Source: a virus
DNA length: 64,000 nt
Reading direction: 5' to 3' (one strand)
IMG/VR virus record: IMGVR_UViG_3300030110_003801
Location: 64,734-128,733 of that record
Part shown: piece after piece, positions 18,400 through 34,611 of the stretch
How positions within the stretch are numbered: the stretch's first letter is position 1
Layout: the number at the start of each line of letters is the position of its first letter
The notes under the pieces: model-generated
What the model saw: the letters and a program-made list of their open reading frames with translations, nothing else
Told to the model about the DNA's origin: nothing
Database searches by the model: none
Made by a program: the position numbers and the translations under genes

Positions 18400-18419
18400 A
18401 TATAAATCACTGTCAACAA

Positions 18420-19030: not shown

Positions 19031-19034
19031 TGTT

Positions 19035-19568
19035 ATGACATACGGAGATATAAGTTTTGTTGCAAGCAAAATATGCGACGAGTTTGACATGCCCTTACAA
19101 GATGTACTTCACAAAAGAAGTAGAAAGCATCAAATAGTAAGGGCTTTTGTTTCCTACTATGGTATCATGCACACAGACCTAAAGTATAAAGACTTTAATG
19201 TTAAGTTAGGTGAAGTGTTTACAGATGGTACTGTGAGGCGACAAGAGAAAACAGGTAAGAAACTTTACAGAGAGTACTTTCGATTGAAGTACTTTAATTG
19301 GTACACGAGTAGTATGTTGCATTTGGATTGGTTCTTTAAACAGGAAGCGTCTAAATACTACGAGAAAGAAATGAAGTTAGGGCGAGGTATTCTACCCCCT
19401 AAATACCCATACAACGACGAGCCTATTGGCATAGTCAATGATTCGGGAGAAACTATAGTTACAAGCTATAAGAGAAACAAGGTCAAGTCTACTTACCCAA
19501 GTGGTCTTGGCGTACACAAAAGAACAGCGTCTAGGAAATACCTAGAACAAATTAAATTAAAAAAGTAA
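19035..19568 (+). CDS. Hypothetical protein, N-terminus reminiscent of a DnaA C-terminal HTH
   Basis: ICDEFDM...SRKHQIVRAFVSY pattern; weak. Confidence 0.55.
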   Translation: MTYGDISFVASKICDEFDMPLQDVLHKRSRKHQIVRAFVSYYGIMHTDLKYKDFNVKLGEVFTDGTVRRQEKTGKKLYREYFRLKYFNWYTSSMLHLDWFFKQEASKYYEKEMKLGRGILPPKYPYNDEPIGIVNDSGETIVTSYKRNKVKSTYPSGLGVHKRTASRKYLEQIKLKK

Positions 19569-20854
19569 TGCTTATGAAAAAGATTAACTCAGAATACTTG
19601 AGAGAAGTATTAAGCGTAAACACATGCTCCAATAGAGAGGAGCAAATGGTTGCTTTCCTTACGCATCAACTATCTGTTTGGGCATCAAACGCAGTAGTCG
19701 AACACACTAAGGACGGCAACATATTAGTAACAAAAAAGCAAACAGATTTCACAGGCTACCTTCCCTGTGTTGTAGCTCACATGGATACAGTACACGACAT
19801 ATACCCGGGCTTTAAAGTTCGTGAGGTAGATGGTAAACTGTTTGCTGTTCAGAACTATGGAAAGAAAAACGTATCTAAGGCGGGTATTGGGGGAGACGAC
19901 AAGGTTGGCGTATTCATAGCCCTAGAAATGCTTAAGACGTTTGACAATATAAAGGTTGCCTTCTTTACTAACGAAGAGATTGGCTGTATTGGTAGTAATG
20001 CGGTGGACTTAGATTGGTTCAATGATACAGCTTTCGTACTACAGGGCGATCGGAGGGGTAACAACGAGATTATTTATTCAGACATGAATGGCGTTGTAGC
20101 TTCAGACGAGTTTATAAATGACACAAAGCCAATAGCTACCAAACACGGCTATGTATTTAGCGACCAAGGTTCTTACACTGACGCAACTACAATGTCGAGT
20201 AACGGGCTGTGTGTATCAGCATACAACATTGCTTGTGGTTACTACAGTGCGCACACTATTGACGAGTACGTAGTAATATCAGATGTAGAAAAATCTTTGA
20301 ATCTGTTTGTTGACATCATTCAACACCTTACCGTTGACAGCAACAAGCAGTACTTACACGAAAACAAGCAAGACTATTACACCAATGGATACTATGACGA
20401 TTGGTATGGAGGGTACTACAATGATAACTTTTCATCATCAGTAGACACAGGGACATCAGTAGTTAAGTTGCCCCTAAAACAAGCAGAGAGAGATTTCCTA
20501 AAAGATACGTATGGAGATTGCGTGAATCATTGTTCAGATGAAGAGCTTATAAATTGGTATAGCGACGACATTGAATTGATGCGAATCGACAACGGAGAGG
20601 ATGTTATAGAATCTGTAAACACCGAGGATGTAGACGGCTTTAAAATAGAAGGTGGGTTCTTTATATATGGAAACCACAAAGTACACTTACCTAGCGAAAT
20701 AAAATGCTGTGTGTGTAGTGGTGGTAAAGCAATCAAGTACTTAGAGGAAGAGCCAAAGAGCCAAGCAGATTATCAATTAGAATACGTGTGTCAGTCTTGT
20801 GGAGAGATACTTGTTGACGAGTACACACTAATGGATTACTTAGACGAATTATAA
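19568..20854 (+). CDS. M20/M28-family Zn metallopeptidase 1 with C-terminal Zn ribbon
   Basis: AHMDTV, GGDDKVG, NEEIG, DRRG, YYSAHT; CCVC...CQSC. Confidence 0.85.
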   Translation: MLMKKINSEYLREVLSVNTCSNREEQMVAFLTHQLSVWASNAVVEHTKDGNILVTKKQTDFTGYLPCVVAHMDTVHDIYPGFKVREVDGKLFAVQNYGKKNVSKAGIGGDDKVGVFIALEMLKTFDNIKVAFFTNEEIGCIGSNAVDLDWFNDTAFVLQGDRRGNNEIIYSDMNGVVASDEFINDTKPIATKHGYVFSDQGSYTDATTMSSNGLCVSAYNIACGYYSAHTIDEYVVISDVEKSLNLFVDIIQHLTVDSNKQYLHENKQDYYTNGYYDDWYGGYYNDNFSSSVDTGTSVVKLPLKQAERDFLKDTYGDCVNHCSDEELINWYSDDIELMRIDNGEDVIESVNTEDVDGFKIEGGFFIYGNHKVHLPSEIKCCVCSGGKAIKYLEEEPKSQADYQLEYVCQSCGEILVDEYTLMDYLDEL

Positions 20855-20872
20855 AACATAAAACCGTGAATT

Positions 20873-22588
20873 ATGAGAATAGAAATTTCAGAAGACTTAA
20901 AAGAAAAACTTAAGTCACTAGACAACAACGTTGTAAAACTTCTGTTTTGCAATAACAAAAAAGAATTTTTAGCACCCAATCCTGTAGTTATAATTAAATC
21001 CTATGTAGATGAGTCAGGAAACAACAACGATGGATATGTTACCATAATTAAAGAAGACAATAGGTCTGCCAACATGAAACTATCAAGAATCTTTAAGCAT
21101 GTTTTCAATAAGGATTTTTACAGTAATTTACTATCATCAGATATCGAACAAGCTAACAACGATTTTGTTTCTTTGTGTGCTACACACGTCTTTAAAGTTG
21201 TTAGTAATGTTAGACTGTTTTACGAAGAGTCGTCATACTATGGTTATGGTACATCTATTCAAGACGACAGGACAGGTACTCTTTGGAAGTCTTGTATGCG
21301 AAACAATATGCACAACTGTGGACAGTTTTTTGAGTGCAACCCGTCTATAAAACTACTTGTTAAGCTAAAAAACGACAAGGTTGTTGGTAGGGCGTTGCTT
21401 TGGCAGAGGGTTTTGTGTAACGACACAGGAAAAGAGTTTGACTTCATGGACAGAATATACACCGTTTATGACCACGATGTAAAAGCGTTTAAAGATTGGG
21501 CGCAAGATAATGGTTATTGCCGAAAAGAATTTCAAACGTATGAAGACCTAGTTGATTTTATTGATGAAAAAGGAAGTCATTTTAAGGTTCGTAACGCTTC
21601 TGTAGATATAAAAAACTATGACCCATACGACTACACAGATGAAAGAGGCATACCCTACTTCGATACGTTTATGTATGTAAATAACAATAATACCTTGTCT
21701 AACTACATAAACAAACACTCTGCTTTTGAAGCTAGAGACCCCGAAGGTCATAAGACTATTTTAGAAACAGCAGATTACAAGAAGTCGGGGGTTTACATGA
21801 ACACTCAATTTATGAGATACATTGATTCTACTAATCGTTGGGTATTAGAAAACGAATCTGTATGGGTACCAAGCGCATCTTGTTATGAAGAGATAGAAAA
21901 CGTTACGCACCTTGATGGAGAGGCGTACAGAACAAAAGATATTAAGTTTTCTAACATATACAAAAAAGACATACCTATAATTAATGGAGCTTTTTACTGT
22001 GAAGCGTCAGAGTCTTGGTTGCTTAGTAAGGACGGTGTACACGTAGGAGATAGGTTCATTTGGAAGGAAGCCGCACGTTGGTCTCACGCACAACAATGCT
22101 ACATAGAAGGCATAAAATCCCAAAACATACACTTTCTTGCTAACAAAACAAACGACGTTATAGAGAAAAATTTGTATGTAGAATTAAGAAAAAAGTATAT
22201 AAACTTTAGGATAACAACTGAGTTTATTCACGACATACTTAACTTCTCTTTTGGCAAGGTAATACCATTCAATACCGAAATGGCTTTAAACAAACACGCT
22301 AGGCACTTGTTTTTTCCACCATTATTTTTCTTGAGAGGGCTTCAAGACCTACATAATTGTAGCCCTAGCTTTTTTGATAAGTGCTATAAGCGTGAATCGT
22401 TTGATAATTCAGACTACCATAAAGAATCTTTTAGAGAAGACCTTGGTTGGATAAAAAAGTCATCCGAAATAATTGACAAGAATAATACAATACTTTATTT
22501 GTTTATGGACTTAGCTAATAACAGAGGGTTTCAAGTTGAGAACGCAGATGAGTTGTATAAAGAAAGTAATAACATTTTAATTAAATAA
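20873..22588 (+). CDS. SCM/DRIY-motif protein, paralog 2
   Basis: MKLSRIF, LWKSCM, GRALLW, MDRIY, IPYFDTF. Confidence 0.8.
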   Translation: MRIEISEDLKEKLKSLDNNVVKLLFCNNKKEFLAPNPVVIIKSYVDESGNNNDGYVTIIKEDNRSANMKLSRIFKHVFNKDFYSNLLSSDIEQANNDFVSLCATHVFKVVSNVRLFYEESSYYGYGTSIQDDRTGTLWKSCMRNNMHNCGQFFECNPSIKLLVKLKNDKVVGRALLWQRVLCNDTGKEFDFMDRIYTVYDHDVKAFKDWAQDNGYCRKEFQTYEDLVDFIDEKGSHFKVRNASVDIKNYDPYDYTDERGIPYFDTFMYVNNNNTLSNYINKHSAFEARDPEGHKTILETADYKKSGVYMNTQFMRYIDSTNRWVLENESVWVPSASCYEEIENVTHLDGEAYRTKDIKFSNIYKKDIPIINGAFYCEASESWLLSKDGVHVGDRFIWKEAARWSHAQQCYIEGIKSQNIHFLANKTNDVIEKNLYVELRKKYINFRITTEFIHDILNFSFGKVIPFNTEMALNKHARHLFFPPLFFLRGLQDLHNCSPSFFDKCYKRESFDNSDYHKESFREDLGWIKKSSEIIDKNNTILYLFMDLANNRGFQVENADELYKESNNILIK

Positions 22589-22590
22589 TT

Positions 22591-23589
22591 ATGAATTTAG
22601 AATCACACAAAAGAAAAGAACTACAGATACTTTTTGAATTGTTCAAAATAAACTCTCCTTCGGGAAAAGAACAAGCAGTAAAAAAGTACGTGAAAAACAT
22701 TTGCAAGATGTTTAAAATAAATTGCAAGACAGATAAAAAAGGAAATCTATACCTTAAAAAGGGTAGAGGAGTTAGACCTTGTTTGGCGGCTCACTTAGAT
22801 ACCGTGTTTACAGACAAGCCTATCATTACACCTGTTGTTGTAAACAGCACTACTATAATTGGTTACGACACTAAAGGTAATGAGCAATGTGGCTTAGGCG
22901 CAGACGATAAGGTTGGAGTGTTCATTGTGCTTAGAGCTATGCTTAAGTACAAGAACATCAAAGCTGTTTTGACGGTTGAAGAGGAGACGGGTTGCCTTGG
23001 AGCTAAAGAAATAAATTTAGATTTCTTTCAAGATGTCGCATACGTATTACAGGCAGACAGGAAAGGGTATGGAGATTTTGTAACGATAGCTTCAAACTCA
23101 AGATACTCAGACATAGTTTTATGTAGTAAAGAGTTTGAAGATGGGTGTAAACCTATTATATCCAAGTATGGCTTTAAGCAAACAGATGGCGGTTCAACAG
23201 ATGTTGTTATGTTCAAGGAATTAGGTATGGATATATCTGTCGTCAATATGTCTTGTGGATACTATGACGCACACGAAGAGACAGAATACATCAACCCTGA
23301 AGAGGTGCTAAACACACTGAAGATGACCTTTGATGTTATAGATAACTTACCCTTAAAAAGGTATACGCACAAAGCAACACTTAAGAAAACTACCTACAGT
23401 TATAATGGGTATTCAAGCAAGGCTTCATGGGGTACTTCATCATGGGGTAAATCAAGCGGAAACTACAAAAGCTCAAAGGCTAGTAGTGCTAAAAGAAATA
23501 CGTGGACGAACTACCACAGCCTTCAGCAGATATCAAACACTATGAACTCAAAAGTTTCAAGACCAATACCAAAATCACTCCCTTTTTAA
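22591..23589 (+). CDS. M20/M28-family Zn metallopeptidase 2
   Basis: SPSGKE, AHLDTV, GADDKVG, EEETG, DRKG, YYDAHE. Confidence 0.88.
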   Translation: MNLESHKRKELQILFELFKINSPSGKEQAVKKYVKNICKMFKINCKTDKKGNLYLKKGRGVRPCLAAHLDTVFTDKPIITPVVVNSTTIIGYDTKGNEQCGLGADDKVGVFIVLRAMLKYKNIKAVLTVEEETGCLGAKEINLDFFQDVAYVLQADRKGYGDFVTIASNSRYSDIVLCSKEFEDGCKPIISKYGFKQTDGGSTDVVMFKELGMDISVVNMSCGYYDAHEETEYINPEEVLNTLKMTFDVIDNLPLKRYTHKATLKKTTYSYNGYSSKASWGTSSWGKSSGNYKSSKASSAKRNTWTNYHSLQQISNTMNSKVSRPIPKSLPF

Positions 23590-23608
23590 TGCGATAAAGT
23601 GATAAAAA

Positions 23609-23872
23609 ATGTTTAACTTTAAACAAAAAACAATGGAACAAATCAATTACGAAAAACTTAGGAAGGCTTTTGATAACCTTCCTAAAGACTATGCAAAATT
23701 AGTTCAAGAAAAAATACCTAATGTGTCTAGTTCAAGGATACACAACATAAGAGCTTTGGCTTATAATGTAGATGAAAAAACATATAAGCCGGGTTCAAAA
23801 ACTATTAATGTTTTTATTGAGCTATTGAGAATATCAGAAGAGTACAAAAAGAATATGGATTTATTAAAATAA
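23609..23872 (+). CDS. Small helical protein, possible HTH
   Basis: LPKDYAKLVQEK..VSSSRIHNI; start may be ATG 23633. Confidence 0.55.
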   Translation: MFNFKQKTMEQINYEKLRKAFDNLPKDYAKLVQEKIPNVSSSRIHNIRALAYNVDEKTYKPGSKTINVFIELLRISEEYKKNMDLLK

Positions 23873-23877
23873 TTATT

Positions 23878-24372
23878 ATGTCAAAAGTAGAAGTATTAAG
23901 AAGATTACATAAAGATTTCAACCTAGATAAGAGCGACTTCTTTACATCAAAACAAGGATTTACTATCATCGTCCGTAGTGGTATAGAAAAAATACAATAC
24001 AAGCTCGGTCTAAAAGTTGAGTTTGAAGTTATATCCTGTGAAAAGGATTTCTGTTGCATTAAAGCAGTAGGTATTGCTCCCGACAGGATACCCATTCAAA
24101 CTTTTGGTTCGGCTATACATAGCGAATACGTTGACATCAAAAAGAAAAACAAGGCAGGTAAAGAGTACATGTCTAAAGAGCTAAAGGGTTCTACAAACTC
24201 TTATTACGTTATGGAGATAGCAGAGAAGAGGGCGTTAGCTAGAGTAACTCTTAAAATGGCAGACCTGTATCAATTCAATGTATTTTCTGAAGATGAGAAT
24301 CCACAAGAAATGGGAGCCGCCCAAGGTGCTGTATTAGACAAATCGAGTTCAGCAGTAGCTCAAGCGTTTTAA
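23878..24372 (+). CDS. Conserved phage protein, possible single-strand annealing protein
   Basis: IIVRSGIEKI...EIAEKRALAR; lies near the YqaJ exonuclease; function is inference. Confidence 0.5.
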   Translation: MSKVEVLRRLHKDFNLDKSDFFTSKQGFTIIVRSGIEKIQYKLGLKVEFEVISCEKDFCCIKAVGIAPDRIPIQTFGSAIHSEYVDIKKKNKAGKEYMSKELKGSTNSYYVMEIAEKRALARVTLKMADLYQFNVFSEDENPQEMGAAQGAVLDKSSSAVAQAF

Positions 24373-24373
24373 A

Positions 24374-24694
24374 ATGGGAAAGCAAAAAGATTTATTCTTG
24401 AAAATATGGAAGACAAGAGAAAGAGTGTGTGTCTTGTGTGGTCAGCATTTAGGCATAGAACCAAGAGCGCACTACTTCTCTCATGTGTTATCAAAAGGTG
24501 CTTATCCTTACTACAAGCTAAACCCTGATAACATAGTGCTAAAGTGTATTCCTTGTCACACCTTATGGGAGACGGGAAGTACAGAAAAGAAAAAAGGACA
24601 CCGTGAATTAATTAAGTTAAAAGAGAAGTTAAAAAGAAAGTATTATGAAGACACTAACAAACTGTCGTCAAGCAAAAAAGATAAGCTATTCTGA
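24374..24694 (+). CDS. HNH/NinG-like endonuclease
   Basis: CVLCG...SH...NIVLKCIPCH. Confidence 0.8.
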   Translation: MGKQKDLFLKIWKTRERVCVLCGQHLGIEPRAHYFSHVLSKGAYPYYKLNPDNIVLKCIPCHTLWETGSTEKKKGHRELIKLKEKLKRKYYEDTNKLSSSKKDKLF

Positions 24695-25394
24695 CATTAA
24701 AGAAGATAACTTAATAACCCTTTTTGGTCTTGTTTTTAAAGTAATCAAAAAAGAAATAGACCTTACTGAACGGGAGTCGCTTTGGTGTTTATCACCTGTT
24801 GGTCATTTAGGTGACAAGCTAGAGCTAAATAATGTTTTCAACAAAGACACCGTAGAGTGTAAAAACAACGCTTGGTTTTACAGAGTTCTTACTAAGCCTG
24901 ACGACGAGTTCTATGTAGGCATAAACACCGAATACTCAGTAGACTGTGCAATGTCTGAAATAGACAGACATGGAAGGGTTTGGTTCAAAAAAAGACGGGA
25001 TTTAAAAAGAGCTATAAATGACTCTGTTGACTTGGTAAATAAAGAATACGTGCCTAAGTCTGTTTATTTCGGATATCTTTTAAGAGAGGTTAATAGCGAC
25101 AAAAAAAACGCCTTATCTAACATTATAAAAGATGCGTTTAAAAAACACTACAAATGTCGTAAAGTAAAAATAGTTATAGATTGTGGTAGGTGGGAATACT
25201 CAGAAGCGCACATGAACATCAATGTTTTTTGTGACACTAGAACATCAAAAGTGTTAACCCTATCTATACCTATATCTGTAAAGGAAGATTATTTAAGTAT
25301 CGCTTCTGACGAAAAGCTAACCTCTTTAGCATTAACTGAATTATTAAAAATTTTATTAAACAACTCAATATCAAATTTAGAAAACCATGTATAA
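24645..25394 (+). CDS. Hypothetical protein
   Basis: 249-aa ORF. Confidence 0.65.
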   Translation: MKTLTNCRQAKKISYSDIKEDNLITLFGLVFKVIKKEIDLTERESLWCLSPVGHLGDKLELNNVFNKDTVECKNNAWFYRVLTKPDDEFYVGINTEYSVDCAMSEIDRHGRVWFKKRRDLKRAINDSVDLVNKEYVPKSVYFGYLLREVNSDKKNALSNIIKDAFKKHYKCRKVKIVIDCGRWEYSEAHMNINVFCDTRTSKVLTLSIPISVKEDYLSIASDEKLTSLALTELLKILLNNSISNLENHV

Positions 25395-26379
25395 AATTGA
25401 CATTAACAAATTAAATCCAAACATAAACGTTACGGACGTTTCAGATTGGTCAAAGCAAAAATGGATTTCTCATCGTGTAAACGCCCTAGGTTGTTCCGAC
25501 TTAGGTACTGCTTTAGGGTTTAACCCTTGGTCTGAACCCGCTATTTTGTTTGCGCAAAAAGTAGGTATAATTCCTACAGGAACGGAAGACAATATGGCTA
25601 TGTTTATGGGTAGAGTAATGGAGCCTGTTATAGCAAACCTTTGGAAACATTGGGACATTAACGAACCCGATTGGTCAGAGTGTTCAAAAAACCTAGAATC
25701 AGGTATAGTCAAGAGAGAGCTTTATACTCCTAGTGTTTATGTTACTAACCCAAAGTATCCTTACTTAATGGGTGGTCCTGACGGTTTATTTATGCACGAA
25801 GGAAAATTAGCTGTTCTTGAAATCAAGACAATATCAAAGTATTCTGCCGACCAATACGAGTCCGGTATACCAACGTCTTACATATTTCAGATACACGGAT
25901 ACATGATGTTATTCGATGCTGACTATGCAGAGATAGCGTTACTACAAGACGGTAGGGAATTAACTGTAGTTCCTTTTAACAGAGACGAAAGGATTGTAAA
26001 GATAATAGAAGAGCAGTGTTCTAGGTTTTGGCAAAACATCCTTGTTGCTAGAGAGTTCTATCTTGACCAAAAAGACATTTCTCACTTAGAGCCTGAGCCA
26101 ACCGACACTAAAGTTTATGAGCAATTCTTACTTGATAGGTTTAAAGCTCAAGACGACTTAGAGGTTCCGTGTAGTAAGTCTGCTCAGTTTTGGATAGACA
26201 AGTTTATATCGTTTAGAAATAAGGAGAATGAAGCTGTAAACAGAAAGAGGTTTTACTCTAATAAGATAAAGTATTTTATGGGTGAGGCGACAAAGATTAC
26301 AGACATCGACGGTGCTAATGTAACTTGGAGAGCAACACGAGACGGTAAAAGCAGAAGATTTAACGCTAGAGAAATATAA
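25387..26379 (+). CDS. YqaJ/lambda-exonuclease family protein
   Basis: LGCSD, MGRVMEP, GGPDG, LEIKT, YIFQIHGYM. Confidence 0.9.
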   Translation: MYKIDINKLNPNINVTDVSDWSKQKWISHRVNALGCSDLGTALGFNPWSEPAILFAQKVGIIPTGTEDNMAMFMGRVMEPVIANLWKHWDINEPDWSECSKNLESGIVKRELYTPSVYVTNPKYPYLMGGPDGLFMHEGKLAVLEIKTISKYSADQYESGIPTSYIFQIHGYMMLFDADYAEIALLQDGRELTVVPFNRDERIVKIIEEQCSRFWQNILVAREFYLDQKDISHLEPEPTDTKVYEQFLLDRFKAQDDLEVPCSKSAQFWIDKFISFRNKENEAVNRKRFYSNKIKYFMGEATKITDIDGANVTWRATRDGKSRRFNAREI

Positions 26380-26385
26380 CAACAA

Positions 26386-26796
26386 ATGATTGACCTTAAA
26401 AATCAAATAGATTGGCTAGAGCATCAAACCTCTTACTTTAAAAAGCAGGCTAAAACAGGCAATATACAATCTAAAATTGATATTTATGAATCAATATTGG
26501 AGACGGTTAAAGGTGTCTATAAAAACGACACCACTGTCATCCAATCATTTGTAATACCAATTACGCTAGAACCTGTTGTTAAAATGCCTAAAGGTAAAAT
26601 AGTAGGAGTAAGTTGTTATAAAGATAAAGAGTTATACGTAACTGTAATGTTCGATAACAAAGACGACTTAATAGATAAAATGTTTTACGTTATACCTGAC
26701 GGAACAAAGATGAAAGATACGTCTAGCATTGGAGAGTTTTACGGAACTTTTCACGTAGATAAATTGGTTCACGTTTTTGAAAAATTATTTAATTAA
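26386..26796 (+). CDS. Hypothetical protein
   Basis: 136 aa; C-terminal FYGTF...LVHVFE. Confidence 0.65.
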   Translation: MIDLKNQIDWLEHQTSYFKKQAKTGNIQSKIDIYESILETVKGVYKNDTTVIQSFVIPITLEPVVKMPKGKIVGVSCYKDKELYVTVMFDNKDDLIDKMFYVIPDGTKMKDTSSIGEFYGTFHVDKLVHVFEKLFN

Positions 26797-26801
26797 AAAT
26801 T

Positions 26802-27137
26802 ATGGAAAAAAGAACAAGAAGGTCTAGGCATACATTTGTTTGGACAGATGAATTAGTTTTAGAGTTTGCAAAAATATCCATGAAGGGACCTTATGGTTCT
26901 TATAAAGGGTGTAAGTCTACTGAGCAAAAATTGATTAGATTTAAAGAGGTAGAACATAACAAGAATCTTGTTTGGGTAAAAGAAAACAAAGACTTTCTTA
27001 GCATAGCTCGTATAGAAAAAGACATTGGAATGCCTGAAACAACATTACTTAAAGCGGTTAATGGTATCCAACACTTCCCTAAAAAATGGGAGGCGGATTT
27101 AGATGATTTTGTTAGAAAATTTAGAAAGAAATATTAA
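26802..27137 (+). CDS. HTH-like protein, paralog A
   Basis: WVKENK.FL.I..IEK.IG.P..TL.KA..G....PKKW, shared with the next gene. Confidence 0.65.
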   Translation: MEKRTRRSRHTFVWTDELVLEFAKISMKGPYGSYKGCKSTEQKLIRFKEVEHNKNLVWVKENKDFLSIARIEKDIGMPETTLLKAVNGIQHFPKKWEADLDDFVRKFRKKY

Positions 27138-27139
27138 AG

Positions 27140-27328
27140 ATGGAAAACACGAAAAAGCAATTAATTGAATGGCTAAAGGAGAACAAGAAAATTCTCCATA
27201 TTAGGAACATAGAAAAAAGAATAGGAATACCCGACAGCACAATAGGAAAGGCGTTGTTAGGTACTAGGAATTTACCCGACAAATGGGTAGAGCCTTTAGA
27301 AAAATTTAGAACAACATTTAATACTTAA
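27140..27328 (+). CDS. HTH-like protein, paralog B
   Basis: WLKENK.IL.I..IEK.IG.P..TI.KA..G....PDKW. Confidence 0.65.
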   Translation: MENTKKQLIEWLKENKKILHIRNIEKRIGIPDSTIGKALLGTRNLPDKWVEPLEKFRTTFNT

Positions 27329-27334
27329 AAAAAA

Positions 27335-27526
27335 ATGAACCCAAGAGAATTTCAAGAAACACTCTATACAGAGATGAGAAACGCATTAGAATCGAACCCT
27401 TCAAAAATATCAAACAAGTCATTTTTGTGGCTATTAAAAGCAACTAGGGTTATGTTCCCTAATGACCAAGAATTTGGTAGGGAAGTGTCGAAACTTTTAA
27501 ACATTCACGTAATACAAAAGAGCTAA
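27335..27526 (+). CDS. Hypothetical protein
   Basis: 63 aa; FPNDQEFGREV. Confidence 0.6.
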   Translation: MNPREFQETLYTEMRNALESNPSKISNKSFLWLLKATRVMFPNDQEFGREVSKLLNIHVIQKS

Positions 27527-27531
27527 CTTTT

Positions 27532-27542
27532 TTGTATATTTG
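27532..27542 (+). promoter_or_regulatory. Promoter -7 element upstream of the SSB-like gene
   Basis: TATATTTG at 27535-27542 matches TAnnTTTG. Confidence 0.6.
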
Positions 27543-27586
27543 TGTCTATATTATTTGTATTTATTTAATTTAAAATTTGTTTTATT

Positions 27587-27901
27587 ATGGCTGAAAAAGA
27601 AGCTAAGCAGAGAATCGGAAGTGTTCAAACAGTACTAGGTAAGTTTGGACCATTTAAGAAAATTTCGTTAAACCTCAGTAACATGGGGAAAGTCTTTAAA
27701 AAAGACGGAAAACATTACCTAAAACTTGATGAGGTAGAGGGGTTTAATCCTTGGACTAACGCTGATGGAGAAACAATCTACTTCTTGAATTTGCTTATGA
27801 ATAGTTATGAGACTATTTCTACTGACAACTTCAAACCAAGTACTGAGTCTAGTAACTCAACAAGAAAGCAAGAAACAGTAAATGATGACTTGCCTTTCTA
27901 A
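27587..27901 (+). CDS. Putative single-stranded DNA-binding protein
   Basis: Small beta-rich protein with a disordered linker and a DDLPF C-terminus, in the replication module. Confidence 0.6.
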   Translation: MAEKEAKQRIGSVQTVLGKFGPFKKISLNLSNMGKVFKKDGKHYLKLDEVEGFNPWTNADGETIYFLNLLMNSYETISTDNFKPSTESSNSTRKQETVNDDLPF

Positions 27902-27924
27902 TAATAATATGTATCTTTAAGATA

Positions 27925-27998
27925 CGAAATGCTTATTTTGCTACTCTGCAAAATTAATTCACGGTTAAGAACGCTTCTTTTTTAAGGAGCGTTTTTTT
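27925..27998 (+). ncRNA. Small RNA candidate: hairpin, 12-nt seed, terminator
   Basis: Stem ATTTTGC/GCAAAAT, unpaired TAATTCACGGTT (27955-27966) complementary to 16769-16780 and 20862-20873, then an intrinsic terminator; 5' end is approximate. Confidence 0.55.
27970..27998 (+). terminator. Intrinsic terminator
   Basis: AACGCTTCTT-TTTT-AAGGAGCGTT followed by TTTTT. Confidence 0.85.
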
Positions 27999-28053
27999 AT
28001 TCTAAAAACTTTTGCATATTTTAGTAGGAACGTGAATTTTTAAATCAATCTTA

Positions 28054-28899
28054 ATGGCAATTATTCGTAACCACAAGAACAAGGACTACACTGTTATGTC
28101 CAATAACCACTTGAACAACAACGAGTTAACTTTAAAAGCAAAAGGATTACTTTCTTTTATGCTTAGTAAACCTGACAGTTGGGACTTCTCTGTAAGAGGG
28201 TTGTCGGCTCAACTAAAAGAGGGTAAAGACTGCGTTGCTAGGGCTATAAATGAACTTATAAAACACAGATACGTAGTTCGTGAACAAGAAGTAAGTGATG
28301 AAAGTTTTAAGTTTAGTAAAATTATATACCACGTATACGAAAACCCGTGTCCGGGAAATCGGGATACGGTAAAACCGGATACGGTAAACCGTCCACAAGT
28401 AAATACTAAAGAAGTAAATACTGAAGAAGTAAATACTAAAAAAGAGAAAAATAATATAAAAGAAATTCAAGAAGTTATTTCTTATCTCAACGACACCGTT
28501 GGTAAATCGTTTAAGGCAGACTCAAGGAACTCTTTAAGCTTGATTAACGCAAGACTAAAGGATTACTCTGTTGATGATTTAAAGAAGGTTATTAAGTACA
28601 AATCACAACAATGGTTGAAGGACAAGATTATGTCTCCTTACTTAAGACCGTCTACTTTATTTAACGCTACTAAGTTTGAGAATTATATTAATGAAATTCC
28701 TAAAGACTTTAGCGTGAAGCGTCAAAAGAAAAATAAGTACACAGCTTGGTCTTTAGAGCCTGAAACAATACCATTTGAATTAATGGACGATTGGTTTGGA
28801 ATGACTTACGACCAAATGGTAAAGGAAAAAGGAACTGTTACAACCGAGAATTTAATTATAAGTAAACTAATGGAAGAGAATGCAAAAGGAAACATTTGA
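28054..28899 (+). CDS. Replication initiator (N-terminal HTH plus conserved phage C-terminal domain)
   Basis: YTVMSN..L...LTLKAKGLL..MLSKPDSW; C-terminal YLRPSTLF..KFENYIN; internal iteron-like repeats. Confidence 0.85.
   Translation: MAIIRNHKNKDYTVMSNNHLNNNELTLKAKGLLSFMLSKPDSWDFSVRGLSAQLKEGKDCVARAINELIKHRYVVREQEVSDESFKFSKIIYHVYENPCPGNRDTVKPDTVNRPQVNTKEVNTEEVNTKKEKNNIKEIQEVISYLNDTVGKSFKADSRNSLSLINARLKDYSVDDLKKVIKYKSQQWLKDKIMSPYLRPSTLFNATKFENYINEIPKDFSVKRQKKNKYTAWSLEPETIPFELMDDWFGMTYDQMVKEKGTVTTENLIISKLMEENAKGNI
28362..28437. repeat. Iteron-like 15-bp-period repeats inside the initiator gene (putative ori)
   Basis: GGATACGGTAAA at 28362 and 28377; AAGTAAATACT at 28397, 28412 and 28427. Confidence 0.7.
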
Positions 28900-30793
28900 T
28901 TGGTCTTTGATTGACCAAAGTAAATTAAGAAATTTTAATGGGGAAAACTCTACAACATGTCCTATCTGTAGCCACACTAGAAAGAAAAAAGGAATTAAGT
29001 GTTTGTCGGTAAATACCGCAAAAGGGTTAGCGAAGTGTAATCATTGTGGCTCTGTATCTTTTGACCCTAACAAGAGGGACGACAAAAAAGACGACAGGAT
29101 GCAATTAAGGACTTACAAAACTCCCGATAAAAATAATATAACAGGGCTACCTGACGAGATAGTAAATTGGTTTTCAAAAGAAAGAGGTATCGAACAAAGA
29201 ACTTTAGTTCATTTTGGAATAGGCAAGTCTATACAATGGTTTCCTCAAACAGGAAAAGAAAATATTTGCGTAGCCTTTCCTTACTACAATGGAGACAAGT
29301 TGATAAACTGTAAATACAGGACAAGAGAAAAACATTTTAAACTTACCTCTCAAGCTAAACTCATATTGTATGGACTAAACAACATTAAAGATATTGATGT
29401 AGGTATAATCGTGGAGGGTGAGATTGATGCTTTAGCCGTATGGCAAGCAGGATACCCTAATGTTGTTTCCGTTCCAAATGGAGTGTCAGGACTAAGCGAT
29501 TCAGAAAAAGAAATGTTTAAAGAAACAGGTAAGTTTGATTCAGATAGACCTGTTAACTTGGAGTATATTGACAACTCTTACGATGACATTAAGCACGTAA
29601 AAAAATGGATAATTTGGACAGACACAGACCTACCCGGTCTTAAACTAAGGGATGAGCTAATAAGGAGGTTTGGTCAAGACGATTGCATGATTGTCAATTC
29701 AGGCGATTTAAAGGACGCAAATCAAGTCCTTATAGAGAAAGGTTCACTAGAGGTAGAAAGATTGATTCAGAACGCAAGAGAAGTTCAAATAGAGGGTGTT
29801 GTTGATGTTGATGTCAGACGTGATTATATAAAAAATTTAATTGAGTACGGTATTGAAAAGGGATTGGAAACTCCATTGAGAGGATTCAATAAACATTACA
29901 GACCGAAGTTAGGAGAGTTAGATACTATAGTGGGAGTCGCCAACCACGGTAAATCGTATTACGCTTTGTGGTATGCTGTTTGGACGGCTATGGAATACAG
30001 TTGGAAATGGGCGTTGTACATGCCCGAAAATGCTCCCGCCTCACGAATAGATAAAACTCTAATAGAGATACTAGTAGGAAAATCTTTTGAAAGCATAAAA
30101 TTAAGTGAAGCTGACGCTGCTATAAATTGGATTCATAAATACTTTGTTGTTGTGGATTATCAAGATAAGGTGGTGTCAATGGATGATGTTCTGATTACTT
30201 TTAAATCAGCAGTTAAGAGGCACGGTGTTAATGGTTTCATCGTGGACCCTCTTAACGATTTGTATCACGACTATACTAAAGGAAGTATAGACCAATACTA
30301 TCAAGCTATGTTGTCTAATGTGAGACGGTTTAAAAAAGCTACTAACACAAAGTTTCTTTTAACCGTACATCCTCATACTCACGCAACAAGAGAAAAAGAG
30401 CAACATAATGAGCAAGGAGAAAGACCAAGGGTTATTGAACTACCTGACGCTACGGGTGGTAATATTTTTCATAACAGGACTGATAATGGTATTAGTGTAT
30501 ATCGTAACGTTTGGAGCGATAACCCTGAATATTATCTTACATCTGAGATACATGTTCAAAAGATTAAGTTCCAAGATGAGGTCGGGAGACCAACTCCAAG
30601 ACAAAGACCTATAAAGCTAAAATTTGACCCCGCAACGAGACGATTTAAAGACGAGGACGGTGTAGATGTTCTGAAAGGAAAGTTTGAAAATAAAATCTAC
30701 GAACCTCAACAACTTTTGTCAGACAAAGGAGATGTTGATTGGCTAAAAGGCTCCTCTCTTAAAGGTAAAAATAAAGACGATTTACCTTTTTAA
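28880..30793 (+). CDS. Primase-helicase (T7 gp4/Twinkle-like)
   Basis: Zn finger CPIC...CNHC, TOPRIM IVEGEIDALA and DTDLPG, Walker A GVANHGKS, Walker B FIVDP. Confidence 0.92.
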   Translation: MQKETFDWSLIDQSKLRNFNGENSTTCPICSHTRKKKGIKCLSVNTAKGLAKCNHCGSVSFDPNKRDDKKDDRMQLRTYKTPDKNNITGLPDEIVNWFSKERGIEQRTLVHFGIGKSIQWFPQTGKENICVAFPYYNGDKLINCKYRTREKHFKLTSQAKLILYGLNNIKDIDVGIIVEGEIDALAVWQAGYPNVVSVPNGVSGLSDSEKEMFKETGKFDSDRPVNLEYIDNSYDDIKHVKKWIIWTDTDLPGLKLRDELIRRFGQDDCMIVNSGDLKDANQVLIEKGSLEVERLIQNAREVQIEGVVDVDVRRDYIKNLIEYGIEKGLETPLRGFNKHYRPKLGELDTIVGVANHGKSYYALWYAVWTAMEYSWKWALYMPENAPASRIDKTLIEILVGKSFESIKLSEADAAINWIHKYFVVVDYQDKVVSMDDVLITFKSAVKRHGVNGFIVDPLNDLYHDYTKGSIDQYYQAMLSNVRRFKKATNTKFLLTVHPHTHATREKEQHNEQGERPRVIELPDATGGNIFHNRTDNGISVYRNVWSDNPEYYLTSEIHVQKIKFQDEVGRPTPRQRPIKLKFDPATRRFKDEDGVDVLKGKFENKIYEPQQLLSDKGDVDWLKGSSLKGKNKDDLPF

Positions 30794-30797
30794 AACA

Positions 30798-30805
30798 TAT
30801 ATTTG
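30798..30805 (+). promoter_or_regulatory. Promoter -7 element for the nitrogen operon
   Basis: TATATTTG, 30 nt upstream of the P-II ATG. Confidence 0.6.
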
Positions 30806-30835
30806 TAATCAATTTTTAACCAATAAATAATCGCT

Positions 30836-31174
30836 ATGAAAAAAGTGGAAGCAATTATCAGGAAGAGTGTCTTCGCTGATGTTAAAACCGCACTCATGGA
30901 CGTTAAGGTAACTTTTTTTAGTTATTGGGACGTAACCGGAGTCGGTAATGAAAAGCTCGATATGCGTTATCGAGAAATTGAGTATAGTACTTCTGATATA
31001 CAACGGAGGTATTTAAGTATCATTGTGTCAGATGAGTTTTTAGACAGGACTGTTAAAGCCATACTAGACTCTGCTTATACAGGAGATATTGGAGACGGCA
31101 AAATCTTTGTCAGCGATGTGCAAGAAGCATATCGAATCCGAACAAAAGAAAGAGGAAACCAAACTTTAAACTAA
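30836..31174 (+). CDS. glnK: Nitrogen regulatory protein P-II (GlnK-type, amtB-linked)
   Basis: MKKVEAIIR...TGDIGDGKIFV...RIRT; 112 aa. Confidence 0.95.
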   Translation: MKKVEAIIRKSVFADVKTALMDVKVTFFSYWDVTGVGNEKLDMRYREIEYSTSDIQRRYLSIIVSDEFLDRTVKAILDSAYTGDIGDGKIFVSDVQEAYRIRTKERGNQTLN

Positions 31175-31181
31175 AAGAGAG

Positions 31182-32417
31182 ATGGAAATGTTAACTGTAA
31201 ACAACGTGTGGATGATGGTCTGCACAGGATTGGTGTTCTTTATGCACCTTGGCTTTTCTTTCTTAGAGATTGGATTAACTCGCCAAAAAAACACTATCAA
31301 CATCTTGTTCAAGAATATCTTCATCATCTGTATGGGACTTCTTGTTTACTACATTGGTGGTTTTAATTTAATGTACCCCGGATTTGAAGAAGGGGACTTA
31401 GGTATTCTTAAGTTCGCAGGATTCGGAATCGAGGCTCCTGCAAATGGAATGACTGCCGAGTATGCTTCAGGAGGATATACTTGGTGGACAGACTTCTTGT
31501 TCCAAGGTATGTTCGCAGCAACAGCAGCAACTATTGTAAGTGGAGCTGTGGCTGAACGTATCAAACTAACTAGCTTTATGCTTTTTAGTATTATTTACGT
31601 AGGTCTAGTTTACCCAATAGTAGGCTCTTGGAAATGGGGAGGAGGATTTCTTGACAAATTAGGATTCTACGACTTTGCCGGAAGTACTCTTGTTCACTCA
31701 GTAGGTGGATGGGCAGCACTAGTATCTGTATGGTTATTAGGTCCTAGAATCGGAAAGTATCTTAAAGTAAACGGAAAGTCTTTCCCTATTTTAGGACACA
31801 ACATCCCCTTTGCTACAGCAGGAGTATTAATCTTGTGGCTAGGTTGGTTTGGATTTAACGGTGGTTCAGTACTTAGTGCAGACCCTGCGTTAACCTCTTT
31901 AACTCTTGTCACCACTTGCCTTGCGGCAGCAGCAGGAGGCTTTGGAGCTGCTATTACATCTTATCTTAAGAATAAGACATTAGATTTAACTATGTTTCTT
32001 AATGGAATTTTAGGAGGTCTAGTTGCTATTACGGCAGGTGCTGACCAAATGTCTCCAAATGAATCTGTTGTAGTTGGACTTATAGGAGGTATTATAGTCG
32101 TGTTTGTCGTTTCTCTTTTAGACAAGGCTAAACTAGACGACCCTGTAGGAGCAATAGCAGTACATTTAGGTTGTGGAATATGGGGAACATTAGCGGTAGG
32201 TATTTTTGGAAACCTAGCTAGTGTGAGCCAATTCATATCACAATTCTTTGGAGTTGTAACAATAGCGGGATTCTGTCTAGTAACTTCTTTTATAATTCTG
32301 TTTACCATTAAAAAAACTATGGGACTTAGAGTTAGCAAAAGTGAAGAGCTAGAAGGACTAGATAGTTCAGAACATGGAATGTCATCTTATCCCGACTTCC
32401 GACTTAATCAACATTAA
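31182..32417 (+). CDS. amtB: Ammonium transporter
   Basis: FQGMFAATAATIVSGAVAER, DFAGSTLVH, WFGFNGGS, DDPVGAIAVH; both pore histidines are present. Confidence 0.97.
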   Translation: MEMLTVNNVWMMVCTGLVFFMHLGFSFLEIGLTRQKNTINILFKNIFIICMGLLVYYIGGFNLMYPGFEEGDLGILKFAGFGIEAPANGMTAEYASGGYTWWTDFLFQGMFAATAATIVSGAVAERIKLTSFMLFSIIYVGLVYPIVGSWKWGGGFLDKLGFYDFAGSTLVHSVGGWAALVSVWLLGPRIGKYLKVNGKSFPILGHNIPFATAGVLILWLGWFGFNGGSVLSADPALTSLTLVTTCLAAAAGGFGAAITSYLKNKTLDLTMFLNGILGGLVAITAGADQMSPNESVVVGLIGGIIVVFVVSLLDKAKLDDPVGAIAVHLGCGIWGTLAVGIFGNLASVSQFISQFFGVVTIAGFCLVTSFIILFTIKKTMGLRVSKSEELEGLDSSEHGMSSYPDFRLNQH

Positions 32418-32422
32418 AAATC

Positions 32423-32443
32423 AGGGGGCTAAACACCCCCTTT
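32423..32443 (+). terminator. Weak hairpin/terminator between amtB and the porin gene
   Basis: AGGGGG-CTAAACA-CCCCCT then TT. Confidence 0.45.
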
Positions 32444-32456
32444 AATATTTCATAAA

Positions 32457-33434
32457 ATGAAAAAGATATTTACAATTTTATTGGCACTAAGTGCATCACT
32501 TATTACAGCTCAAGATAGCTTGAAATCAAACCTTTCATTAGAAGGAAGCGCTGATATTTATTACAGAAAAAACCTTAGTACAAACAGCACAGGTGTTGCT
32601 CCTGCTACATCTTTTGCTAACCTAAATGGTTTTAGCTTAGGTATGTTTAATCTTATCGGTTCTTATGACACTAAGAATACAGGATTTGTAGCCGACTTAG
32701 TATTTGGACCTAGAGGAGAAGATGCTGTTTTCTTATCGTCAGGAAACTCTAGCATTGTCAATCAGCTTTACGCTTATTGGGATGTAAGCGATAACCTAAC
32801 TTTAACAATGGGTAACTTCAATACCTTCTTAGGCTATGAGGTTATTAGCCCCGCAGGAAACTTTAACTACTCAACTTCTTACATGTTTAGTTATGGTCCA
32901 TTCTCCCATAGTGGTCTGAAAGCCGACTTCAACCTATCTGAAGATTTTACAGGTATGGTTGCTGTCTTAAATGCTACCGATGAAACAGAGTTTAACTCCA
33001 CCAACTACAATACGCTAGGTGGTCAGTTGGCTTACAAGAGTACGTACTTAAATGCTATATACGGTAAGCAAGACTCAAGCTCTGAGGCTACTTTTCAAAT
33101 TGACTTGACAGCAGGTTATGACTTGTCAGAAAAGTTCTATCTTGGAGTGAACACTACATACAATGAAACAGAAGGTAGTGGTTTTTACGGGGTAGCCTTA
33201 TATCCTCAATATGCAATTCGCAAATTGACAACAGGATTAAGAACAGAGTATTTTAGCGAGTTTACTTCTTCCGGAAATACAGACGTTATCGGATTAACAG
33301 CTACGCTTGATTATTCAGTAGAGAATTTAAACCTAAAATTAGAGTATAGGCTTGATAAGGCTGATGATAAAATCTTTGAAACAAAGGATAATTTATCTAG
33401 CATAGTTCTAGCAGCGGTATATTCTTTTAATTAA
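32457..33434 (+). CDS. Outer-membrane beta-barrel porin (BBP2/DUF1597-like)
   Basis: Signal peptide; GNFNTFLGYEVISP..NFNYSTSYMFSYGPF.H.G; LEYRLD; terminal YSF. Confidence 0.85.
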   Translation: MKKIFTILLALSASLITAQDSLKSNLSLEGSADIYYRKNLSTNSTGVAPATSFANLNGFSLGMFNLIGSYDTKNTGFVADLVFGPRGEDAVFLSSGNSSIVNQLYAYWDVSDNLTLTMGNFNTFLGYEVISPAGNFNYSTSYMFSYGPFSHSGLKADFNLSEDFTGMVAVLNATDETEFNSTNYNTLGGQLAYKSTYLNAIYGKQDSSSEATFQIDLTAGYDLSEKFYLGVNTTYNETEGSGFYGVALYPQYAIRKLTTGLRTEYFSEFTSSGNTDVIGLTATLDYSVENLNLKLEYRLDKADDKIFETKDNLSSIVLAAVYSFN

Positions 33435-33441
33435 TCCAAGA

Positions 33442-33621
33442 ATGCAGGAAATAGAAGAAATAACAGAAGGGTGGTATTTATGCCTTAGAAACGGCAAAGA
33501 ACTACAAATGTATAACGACGGTAATGGTACATGGCACTTATCAGCTCATCACACAGACGATGTAGTGTTCAGTAGAATAGCTAAAAATCCTGACGTGGTA
33601 TTGAAAAAAATATCAAAATGA
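33442..33621 (+). CDS. 59-aa hypothetical protein (not in the ORF track)
   Basis: MQEIEEITEGWY...; ATGA overlap with the next gene. Confidence 0.55.
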   Translation: MQEIEEITEGWYLCLRNGKELQMYNDGNGTWHLSAHHTDDVVFSRIAKNPDVVLKKISK

Positions 33622-33899
33622 TAAAGGATTTAGTACCCGTTAAGTTTATTCCAAAAATTAGAAGGTTGGGTTACATAGGTTGCCCAACCTTTTATAGAGT
33701 ATCTAAGTGGTTTAGAAAAGAGCTAGGATATACATCTTGGATTGAACAGTCAGAAGATACATACATATATAAGATATACTCTATGGGTTCCTTTAGAAGA
33801 CCTAAAGGATACGATTTAAAATATCCACACTGTAAAACCTACGAACAAGCAGAAAAAGAACTTATACGTGAATTAATTAAAATAGCAGAGAAAGTATAA
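33618..33899 (+). CDS. Hypothetical protein
   Basis: PT....KWFR...TYEQAE pattern. Confidence 0.65.
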   Translation: MIKDLVPVKFIPKIRRLGYIGCPTFYRVSKWFRKELGYTSWIEQSEDTYIYKIYSMGSFRRPKGYDLKYPHCKTYEQAEKELIRELIKIAEKV

Positions 33900-33901
33900 A
33901 C

Positions 33902-34381
33902 ATGAAAAAATTAGCAGTTGAAACCCCAAGGGGAAAGCATTTTTTAAAAATACAACAAGACACACTCAAAAGACTTTGTGATTCATACAACATGAAGAAC
34001 TTAGAAATGAAGCATAAAGATGCAAGAATTGATGGTGTGTTGGGAACTCAAGACAATAAAGCCGTGTGTGTTTATGAGTTCAAATCAAGGTCTAAAGATA
34101 TAGGCTACTACAAAAAAAACGGACTTTTTATTTCTCAATATAAAATCAAAATGGGTACTAAGTATTCTGCCCTTTTTGGAGTGCCTCTTGTGTTCTATTT
34201 TTATTTATACGAACAAGACGAAATGTACAGCATAATAATGTCTGACGACAGAGGCAAAATAATAATAGACCTTCCAAAACCTGTTTACAAAACAACTCAG
34301 TATAACTGTAATAGAGAAGATGTAAAGCAAGATTTAGTTGTCTACTTACCCGTGGATAAATTCAAACTTTTAAAATTATAA
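33902..34381 (+). CDS. PD-(D/E)xK nuclease-like protein
   Basis: RIDG...YEFKSR. Confidence 0.65.
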   Translation: MKKLAVETPRGKHFLKIQQDTLKRLCDSYNMKNLEMKHKDARIDGVLGTQDNKAVCVYEFKSRSKDIGYYKKNGLFISQYKIKMGTKYSALFGVPLVFYFYLYEQDEMYSIIMSDDRGKIIIDLPKPVYKTTQYNCNREDVKQDLVVYLPVDKFKLLKL

Positions 34382-34383
34382 GC

Positions 34384-34611
34384 ATGGACTACGCAAAAGG
34401 AAACGGAGATTACAGACCGTTCAAGTTTACATTTGAAGACGGTCTTATTATTGAAATAATTCACGATGTTCACAAGCACGGATTAAGCATATTAGAATTA
34501 TTTGAAGAGTGGTATAGCATAACTGAAGAAAGAACTGTAGAAAGCTTTTGTGAATATATAATGACACAACATAAGAAATGTTTGGCTTTCCCAAAAGCAA
34601 CTTTAACTTAA
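34384..34611 (+). CDS. Hypothetical protein
   Basis: 75-aa ORF. Confidence 0.6.
   Translation: MDYAKGNGDYRPFKFTFEDGLIIEIIHDVHKHGLSILELFEEWYSITEERTVESFCEYIMTQHKKCLAFPKATLT

Follow-up and report, generated by a model that had tools for sequence, protein, structure and literature searches.

A short sequence tag of 9-14 nt, with a consensus of about AACCGTGAATTAATT, is associated with the starts of five genes of a phage replication module, and one antisense copy of it, which we call the mirror copy, lies in the 3'UTR of a small gene of the same block. This tag-and-mirror arrangement is real and non-random. In our opinion the single most likely reading of it, which we hold tentatively and at somewhat less than an even chance, is that the mirror copy would serve as the seed of a trans-acting antisense RNA, either borne by the 3'UTR or about 75 nt long. 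Judged from the sequence, the arrangement makes a well-defined candidate; the small RNA (sRNA) mechanism is weakened by the comparison with a relative, L006.

The timing of phage gene expression is mostly explained by promoters and proteins. If the proposed reading is true, it would provide a case of a phage regulating itself by RNA in a host group without a known RNA chaperone, and it would suggest a purpose for start-associated sequences in other phages.

Genomic setting

The window, that is the whole stretch of 64,000 nt analysed here, comprises bases 64734-128733 of the contig of IMGVR_UViG_3300030110_003801 (128,733 bp, 36% G+C). The phage is uncultured and marine. With a simple ORF model 161 genes are called, which fall into five strand blocks, and the tag and its mirror copy lie in the plus-strand block 13607-35610. 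This block contains two diverged paralogs (16783 and 20873, named here by their starts), of a family for which the searches gave no functional assignment, with a peptidase after each, a RecE-like exonuclease, a primase-helicase, a P-II/AmtB/porin set, a replication initiator (HTH_36 plus Phg_2220_C, gene 28054-28899), a PDDEXK nuclease (ATG 33902) and an HNH nuclease. GC skew tracks gene direction and is uninformative on the origin.

The host is likely a member of the Bacteroidota, Flavobacteriia-like, since SD-like 4-mers are scarce (9 of the 161 genes, with an A-rich peak at -14 to -11), since TATATTTG boxes are found in intergenic DNA (n=6, 17-81 nt upstream of same-strand starts), and since the nearest GenBank phages by primase, at 29-35% identity, grow on Riemerella-type (sewage isolate), Tenacibaculum and Flavobacterium hosts. 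sRNAs of Bacteroidota-type hosts are known to act at start regions, and to our knowledge this host group has neither Hfq nor ProQ nor any known RNA chaperone.

Could the tag simply be all or the core of a promoter that a phage-directed RNA polymerase uses? Transcripts would then begin at the tag or right behind it, the messages of the two paralogs would be leaderless or almost so, and a short leftward RNA would be driven by the mirror copy. There are phage promoters of kinds still unrecognised, since a crAss-like phage was reported to have early transcripts with no detectable common motif (10.1101/2020.03.07.982082). The tag would also fit in its sense orientation, its variable distance to the ATG, the copies inside the 3' ends of upstream genes and its ninth base, an A that is the A of ATG 20873; the copy at 24602 and the gene downstream of it were, further, gained or lost together between the window and L006. 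However, no phage RNA polymerase was found, as the DFDxD motif occurs in no protein of more than 600 aa and a PDB sequence match is lacking for both the 2805-aa and the 2393-aa protein. Promoters of host type, with TATATTTG, are visibly in use in this phage, and the conserved part of the tag is short. We regard this reading as highly improbable. Two further readings of the tag were dropped: an ECF-type or host -33/-7 promoter, for which no matching second element was seen by eye, and a DnaA box, with whose consensus the tag agrees at 6 of 9 positions.

Copies of the tag

Everything on which the preliminary description built its case (the palindrome, the hairpin, TAATTCACGGTT, the terminator, the two copies of AACCGTGAATTA, and ACCGTGAATTAATT, CGTGAATTAATT and CGTGAATT) was found where it had been placed (Table 1). 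The proposed count of matches and of their enrichment near start codons also came out in its favour: the copies are non-random and sense-biased, and the five sense copies of CGTGAATT in the block each end 0-35 nt before an ATG (16783, 20873, 24645, 28054, 33902).

Table 1. Tag copies and features of the mirror-bearing region (positions are those of the window)
Feature	Position	Strand	Remarks
Sense copy AACCGTGAATTA	16769-16780	+	24-nt gap, 2 nt before ATG 16783 (paralog A)
Sense copy AACCGTGAATTA	20862-20873	+	18-nt gap, last A is the A of ATG 20873 (paralog B)
Sense copy ACCGTGAATTAATT	24600-24613	+	3' end of ORF 24374-24694, in-frame R-E-L-I-K, 31 nt before ATG 24645
Consensus Bacteroidota-type -7 box TATATTTG	27535-27542	+	45 nt before the 104-aa gene; likely promoter of the mirror-bearing transcript
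104-aa gene, C-terminal DDLPF	27587-27901	+	3'UTR carries the mirror copy
Perfect palindrome GTATCTT-T-AAGATAC (GTATCTTTAAGATAC)	27911-27925	+	Encloses the -7-like TATCTTTA (27912-27919)
Hairpin 1, ATTTTGC-TACTCT-GCAAAAT	27935-27954	+	Predicted 7-bp stem
Mirror (antisense) copy TAATTCACGGTT, proposed seed	27955-27966	+	Between hairpin 1 and terminator
Intrinsic terminator	27967-28002	+	13-bp stem and 4-nt loop at 27967-27996, then a T7 run
Sense copy CGTGAATT	28031-28038	+	15 nt before initiator ATG 28054; 75 bp from the mirror copy, inverted pair
Sense copy CGTGAATTAATT	33867-33878	+	3' end of ORF 33618-33899, R-E-L-I-K, 23 nt before ATG 33902 (PDDEXK nuclease)
Second antisense copy CGTGAATTA	34457-34465	-	Inside gene 34384-34611; absent from the preliminary description

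CGTGAATTA occurs six times in the window, whereas 100 dinucleotide shuffles averaged 0.45 copies and none reached six (the largest count was 3). Over the whole genome of 128,733 bp these remain the only copies, all six within positions 16772-34465 of the window. The shorter CGTGAATT has nine copies genome-wide, of which seven are in the plus-strand block and the other two (37234 and 13527) are deep within genes. The intergenic DNA of the block (13853-35610) amounts to only 614 nt in 27 segments and holds three sense copies (16772, 20865, 28031) and one antisense copy (27956) of CGTGAATT; shuffling gave a mean of 0.017, and 0 of 5000 shuffles contained at least four.

Inside genes the picture depends on orientation. 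The sense 12-mer CGTGAATTAATT was observed twice against 0.052 expected, a count reached by just 4 of 3000 synonymous-codon shuffles, and the sense 9-mer twice against 0.165 (6 of 400 such shuffles). The in-gene antisense copy at 34457, on the contrary, was observed once against a mean of 0.46, and 154 of 400 synonymous-codon shuffles reached one, so that it is probably a chance occurrence. Hence the solidly non-random set consists of five sense copies and one antisense copy.

One may still argue that the copies are coincidental in an AT-rich genome with common codon usage. Indeed, both in-gene sense copies encode their R-E-L-I-K in common codons, the in-gene antisense copy fits the codon null, and given ~131,000 possible 9-mers (our estimate) the existence of some 9-mer with six copies would be unremarkable post hoc. 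Yet the intergenic shuffles and the codon shuffles of the 12-mer both speak against coincidence, the core of the copy at 28031 is conserved amid changed flanks, and the exact copies are conserved in L006, unlike the near-matches CGTGGATAAATT at 34351 and CATTCACG at 27502, which are not conserved there and were dropped. Coincidence is the least probable of the explanations considered here, and a very unlikely one. Another near-match, TCCGTGAAATA at 14400, was set aside as it lies within tRNA-Glu.

Paralogs A and B have A(C/T)AAAACCGTGAATTA in common at their starts. Since the two proteins are only 30% identical over 151 aa, the shared tag has been maintained and is no remnant of duplication. 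In seven other multi-copy phage contigs, none of the paralog homologues (17 loci) has a tag resembling CGTGAATTA. The sense copies resemble one another as closely as they resemble the mirror copy. A second and unrelated start tag, TTATCAATC, stands directly before five ATGs and has no intergenic mirror copy, which means that start tags in this phage need no antisense partner.

The 3'UTR with the mirror copy

The mirror copy is the sole intergenic antisense copy in the block. The gene upstream of it was earlier labelled SSB-like, a label that goes back to the C-terminal DDLPF alone and that found no backing in Pfam or PHROG, neither of which gave a match to the 104-aa protein. Because the gene forms a compact unit from promoter to terminator, a transcript covering the mirror copy is very likely. 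The array in its 3'UTR (palindrome, 7-bp hairpin, TAATTCACGGTT and 13-bp terminator) has a z-score of -4.9, and the predicted unpaired probability over ATTCACGGTT is 0.4-0.99 in three transcript contexts, i.e. the site would be mostly unpaired.

It is less clear that a shorter RNA would have a promoter of its own. The near-consensus -7 box that the preliminary description saw in the palindrome is TATCTTTA, without the final G of the TATATTTG boxes of this phage. In L006 the palindrome is not conserved: its right arm is deleted, which makes it dispensable, and the TATATTTA that remains is likewise without the G. An own promoter is in any case unnecessary for an RNA derived from the 3'UTR. A cmscan of 15000-36000 against Rfam at E up to 1 returned only a chance-level GA-cis match at 18834.

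When the region 27902-28075 is folded as a read-through RNA, 27956-27963 pairs with 28031-28038 in the minimum-energy and centroid structures. This predicted helix may coexist with either an RNA or a DNA-site reading. Alternatively, the tag could be a cis RNA element read by a protein or by the ribosome (an enhancer of translation, say, or a site for an endoribonuclease or a RegA-type translational repressor), and the mirror copy would act locally, by forming an 8-bp helix with the tag in the initiator leader that encloses the terminator in read-through RNA. Both arms of the helix are kept in L006, sense bias and proximity to start codons are what such an element would show, the TTATCAATC tag manages without an intergenic mirror, and the start-associated sequences (SAS) of Cluster K mycobacteriophages (PMC3203893) offer a precedent. 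Against this, the position of the tag relative to the ATG ranges from -1 to +34 nt, the block ORFs scanned include no recognisable RNA-binding protein family, and read-through should be rare given the strength of the terminator. It also leaves unexplained the 12-nt identity between the mirror copy and the tags of the paralogs, for which the genome-wide expectation from base composition is about 0.015. In our view this explanation is improbable, if less so than a promoter.

Predicted pairing and the proposed mechanism

Duplexes between the seed and four start regions are predicted at -16.4 to -19.0 kcal/mol, compared with a mean of -5.8 (sd 2.8) over the 161 start regions. The real seed matches five start regions at -15 or below, while 0 of 300 composition-matched shuffled seeds reached at least three. 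With random genomic 21-mers as a control, 29 of 300 matched at least five start regions, a comparison that is confounded by GC content. The copy at 16769-16780 can pair with the mirror copy over 13 contiguous nt, at a predicted duplex energy of -17.1 and an estimated net of about -10 kcal/mol, and near 33867 the complementarity to the mirror region extends over 16 of 18 nt. After opening costs, the estimated net energies for the four targets in the window are -10.0, -5.0, -7.4 and -8.4 kcal/mol. The initiator copy pairs with the seed over 8 bp only, at an estimated net of +3.9 kcal/mol. Predicted accessibility of the targets (0.44-0.76) is no different from background (0.56, sd 0.20), and two of them are 27-46 nt upstream of the ATG, beyond the usual range of ribosome occlusion.

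According to the proposed mechanism, the 3'UTR of 27587-27901 would pair with the tag at four start regions and lower their translation. The targets would be the paralogs 16783 and 20873 (MDRIY-family), gene 24645 and the PDDEXK nuclease gene 33902; the initiator gene 28054 carries the tag in a shorter form. The active form might be the ~450-nt mRNA itself or a ~75-nt RNA that arises by processing or is started at a weak internal promoter, and in either case the output of the target genes would be coupled to the transcript level of the small gene. That an RNA with such ends exists, that it pairs and that the pairing represses is what we infer.

As criteria for a trans-acting sRNA we considered an intrinsic terminator at the 3' end, a conserved single-stranded seed, complementarity to start regions beyond chance, and co-variation of seed and targets. 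The terminator is present in both the window and L006, and the single-stranded seed is predicted in these two sequences. The complementarity exceeds chance when judged by shuffled seeds and by intergenic shuffles; the random-genomic control, GC-confounded as it is, failed. Seed-target co-variation is absent in L006, one relative.

A trans-acting antisense RNA would explain why there is a single intergenic antisense copy, why a site predicted to be unpaired precedes a terminator, and why the pairing extends to four start regions. It accounts poorly for the conserved 8-nt copy at the initiator, for the loss of extended pairing in L006 and for the likeness of the sense copies to one another. The initiator copy is conserved and yet, going by the predicted pairing, of a length that makes it implausible as a target in trans. 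The multi-target sRNA of the preliminary description survives in part. What stands is a mirror site predicted to be mostly unpaired, the conserved hairpin and strong terminator around it, a consensus promoter upstream and strong predicted duplexes; what is weakened or finds no support is the own promoter, the initiator as a target and the placing of the regulon at the switch to replication.

A further-reaching idea would be that an abundant SSB-tail message doubles as a regulator, the seed in its 3'UTR and the start tag forming a virus-internal multi-target regulon in a Bacteroidota phage, and that the same explanation holds for the lone opposite copy of the Cluster K SAS. The 15-year-old question raised by these SAS would then become directly testable. 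This extension is doubtful, and we put it forward as speculation.

Relation to known systems

The number of tested phage RNAs that control genes of their own phage in trans is small according to a review (PMC12197685), which names c4, sar, OOP and a few described recently. The c4 antisense RNA of P1/P7 is about 77 nt long (Citron and Schuster 1990, as given in PMC12197685) and, in the account of the same review, blocks translation by covering the ribosome-binding region. Like the candidate, it is a phage-encoded trans RNA of similar size with a structured 3' end, which uses short exposed complementary stretches against genes of its own phage (PMC12197685). As the review presents it, c4 is part of the prophage immunity of a temperate phage of enterobacteria and acts on a single operon (PMC12197685). 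The candidate, read from sequence alone, differs in having 4-5 dispersed targets, a Bacteroidota-type host and a location in a 3'UTR. The C4 family of Rfam has no sequence or covariance match in 15000-36000.

Also comparable are bacterial sRNAs that are derived from 3'UTRs or encoded in trans, such as DapZ, CpxQ and GibS of Bacteroides; these are encoded by the host, their ends have been mapped and their targets tested. The candidate would share with bacterial 3'UTR sRNAs a single-stranded seed just before its own intrinsic terminator and several targets in start regions; it is unlike them in that regulator and targets are both phage genes and in that it is known from its sequence only. A 3'UTR-derived sRNA acting on phage mRNA is mentioned in one report (PMC13250501).

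For the Cluster K SAS, Pope et al. (2011) left it open whether their reader is 'either RNA or protein' (PMC3203893). SAS and tag are both short asymmetric repeats in a non-structural region, near the starts of unrelated genes and mostly in one orientation. Both also have a single opposite-strand copy per genome, which in SAS is not tied to a gene start (both points for SAS as described in PMC3203893). By that description SAS are 13 bp long and of GGGATAGGAGCCC type, with an SD core, and they stand 3-7 bp before the ATG of 13-20 or more genes (PMC3203893), whereas the tag reads AACCGTGAATTA(ATT), has no SD, varies in register over 0-35 nt and marks five genes. Thus the tag agrees with SAS in orientation, region, proximity to starts and the single opposite copy, but it has neither the 13-bp sequence with the SD core nor the 3-7 bp spacing.

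Comparison with a relative

L006 is the sole close relative among the matches listed in a metagenome scan, and what we say about conservation of seed and tag concerns two sequences, the window and L006, with the relatives P0002, P0003, P0005 and P0006, whose primases are 84%, 79%, 55% and 49% identical, left out. The two share 93% primase identity and 74-88% nucleotide identity, with 68% identity at 652 four-fold sites. The 104-aa gene is 88% identical at both the nucleotide and the amino acid level, and its TATATTTG box is identical together with its surroundings. The stem of hairpin 1 is kept (8 bp in L006, one loop change), as is the terminator, with a shifted G-U pair. In the mirror copy TAATTCACGG is identical and both flanks are altered: one T is lost, and GGTT has become GGGG. 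As a consequence of these flank changes both neighbouring stems are predicted to be longer and exactly ATTCACG is left open, with a predicted unpaired probability of at least 0.91.

On the side of the targets, AAACCGTGAATTATG of the paralog B tag and the nuclease copy CGTGAATTAATT at 33867 are kept. At the initiator ACGTGAATT is kept, while 4 of 4 preceding bases and the following bases have changed. The copy at 24602 is absent from L006 (CACCGTG reads CATGAAG there), and so is gene 24645-25394. Overall, a core of 8-10 nt is kept at four sites, and the flanks that allow 12-16 nt of pairing are neither kept nor compensated. Since the flanks of the seed have changed and the targets have not, pairing in L006 would be cut to 8-10 bp, with estimated net energies of -4.3, -3.4 and +1.1 kcal/mol. 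The preliminary description had suggested looking for compensatory changes between seed and targets; L006, the sole relative compared, has none.

The main rival of the antisense RNA is a protein-binding site: the tag would be an asymmetric stretch of double-stranded DNA that a sequence-specific phage or host protein recognises, so as to work as an operator or as a roadblock where genes start. The initiator promoter would then have one site of the inverted pair 27956/28031 on either side, which together would form an operator of two sites. Conservation of an 8-10 nt core with free flanks, alike at sense and antisense sites, is what a DNA site predicts; so is conservation of the initiator copy despite its poor pairing with the seed, and the spacing of the inverted pair is nearly constant (75 bp in the window, 74 bp in L006). 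The consensus of the sites is mutual and not specific to the mirror copy, and a protein reading ~14 nt would explain the extended matches equally well. In L006 two additional antisense copies have arisen inside genes, mostly through synonymous changes; its three such copies compare with a mean of 0.71 (17 of 400 shuffles reached three, a marginal enrichment), which hints at orientation-independent selection. A possible reader is the initiator itself, whose HTH_36 (E 6.9e-7) is the sole recognisable DNA-binding domain among the 38 block ORFs scanned with Pfam.

Nevertheless, the strong sense bias (five sense to one antisense among the copies beyond chance) does not suit an operator well. Two copies lie in gaps of 18 and 24 nt that touch the ATG, with no room for a promoter, the sites are spread over 17 kb, unlike iterons, and the in-gene antisense copy of the window fits chance. 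The Pfam scan of the 38 block ORFs also returned no repressor-like protein. Stoperators of L5 and Cluster A are 13-bp asymmetric DNA sites, about 24-30 in number, that are bound by the prophage repressor, and like the tag they are scattered, placed in short intergenic gaps and oriented with transcription. The tag is unlike them in that no repressor gene or lysogeny module was seen among the block ORFs scanned. As a precedent, the stoperators of mycobacteriophage L5 (mentioned in PMC3203893) nonetheless lend the operator some weight. On balance we consider a DNA site unlikely, though as a rival to be taken seriously, and retain the trans-acting antisense RNA as our preferred reading.

Searches of IMG/VR with the initiator, paralog A, the primase-helicase (single sequence and alignment) and two exact DNA patterns yielded no close relative. 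L001, whose initiator is 40% identical, has no gap before the initiator and is uninformative. When the two sequences of the putative RNA were made into a covariance model and 165 sources (1.81 Mb; L166-L248 left out) were searched with it, the model recovered the same two sequences and, at E 0.56, one further match in L134. Of the runs listed for 22500-32499 none is an RNA run. The four that were compared (X3-X6, of 20 runs) are DNA contigs, and among the 40 variant rows listed for them none is at a motif copy. A 7152-nt contig of run X4 spans 23961-31074 with 403 differences.

Tag and gene in the close relative

The function-unknown gene at 24645 carries a copy of CGTGAATTA, the short start-associated tag of the replication module, 34 nt upstream. 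In the sole close relative that we found, the metagenome locus L006, this copy is missing (four substitutions within 5 nt) and so is the 249-aa gene itself. Since both are missing together, we conclude that the tag is gained or lost along with its gene. In the window, the copy upstream of 24645 lies in the C-terminus of the 106-aa ORF at 24374, whose weak NinG-like match (E 0.08) is below threshold; together with its cysteine and histidine spacing (see the table), this may indicate a small nuclease. At 14400, a sequence that nearly matches the tag falls within a tRNA-Glu gene and was dismissed as chance.

Coordinates of the features discussed
Feature	Position	Remark
106-aa ORF	window 24374-24694	CxxC...H...CxxCH spacing
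Function-unknown gene, 249 aa	window 24645-25394	
tRNA-Glu (TTC)	window 14363-14435	in gap before gene 14450
Two paralogs	window 16783-18399 and 20873-22588	
P-II, AmtB, OmpL-like porin genes	window 30836-33434	Pfam-confirmed
Large proteins	window 35851-43032; genome 6233-14650	
TATATTTG boxes	window 27535-27542, 30798-30805; genome 6170, 28554, 32337, 35388	
TTATCAATC start tag	genome 36437, 36906, 37874, 38954, 42514 (outside window)	+ block
TTATCAATC look-alikes	window 13845-13852 and 28040-28053	
CTGGGCCCC(T) repeat	genome 36866, 37317, 39250, 41124, 41394 (outside window)	intergenic, one orientation

Other genes

The paralogs at 16783 and 20873 belong to a virus-only family with invariant SCM, MDRIY and PY.DT, for which neither a Pfam nor a PHROG model was found. 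IMG/VR holds 181 relatives, and jumbo-phage contigs often have several copies each. The L006 copy is only 60% identical, whereas the primase is 93% identical. Marine metagenome contigs stack over the P-II, AmtB and OmpL-like porin genes to a depth of up to 250; this pile-up probably derives from host-like cellular genes. Neither the 2393-aa nor the 2805-aa protein matches any PDB sequence, and a DFDxD motif was found in no protein above 600 aa in the whole genome. These results do not confirm a crAss-like assignment of the phage.

Promoters and a second start tag

The Bacteroidota -7 box TATATTTG occurs six times in intergenic DNA, 17-81 nt upstream of same-strand starts. Judging from the position of these boxes, the phage uses host-type promoters, at least for the genes behind them.

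Five genes of another + strand block share a leader of about 25 nt, the end of which, TTATCAATC, directly abuts the ATG. This is a second start tag, unrelated to the first one, and no reverse-complement copy of it was seen in intergenic DNA. The intergenic gaps of the same block also contain five CTGGGCCCC(T) repeats, which could represent either the stems of terminators or a different kind of regulatory repeat.
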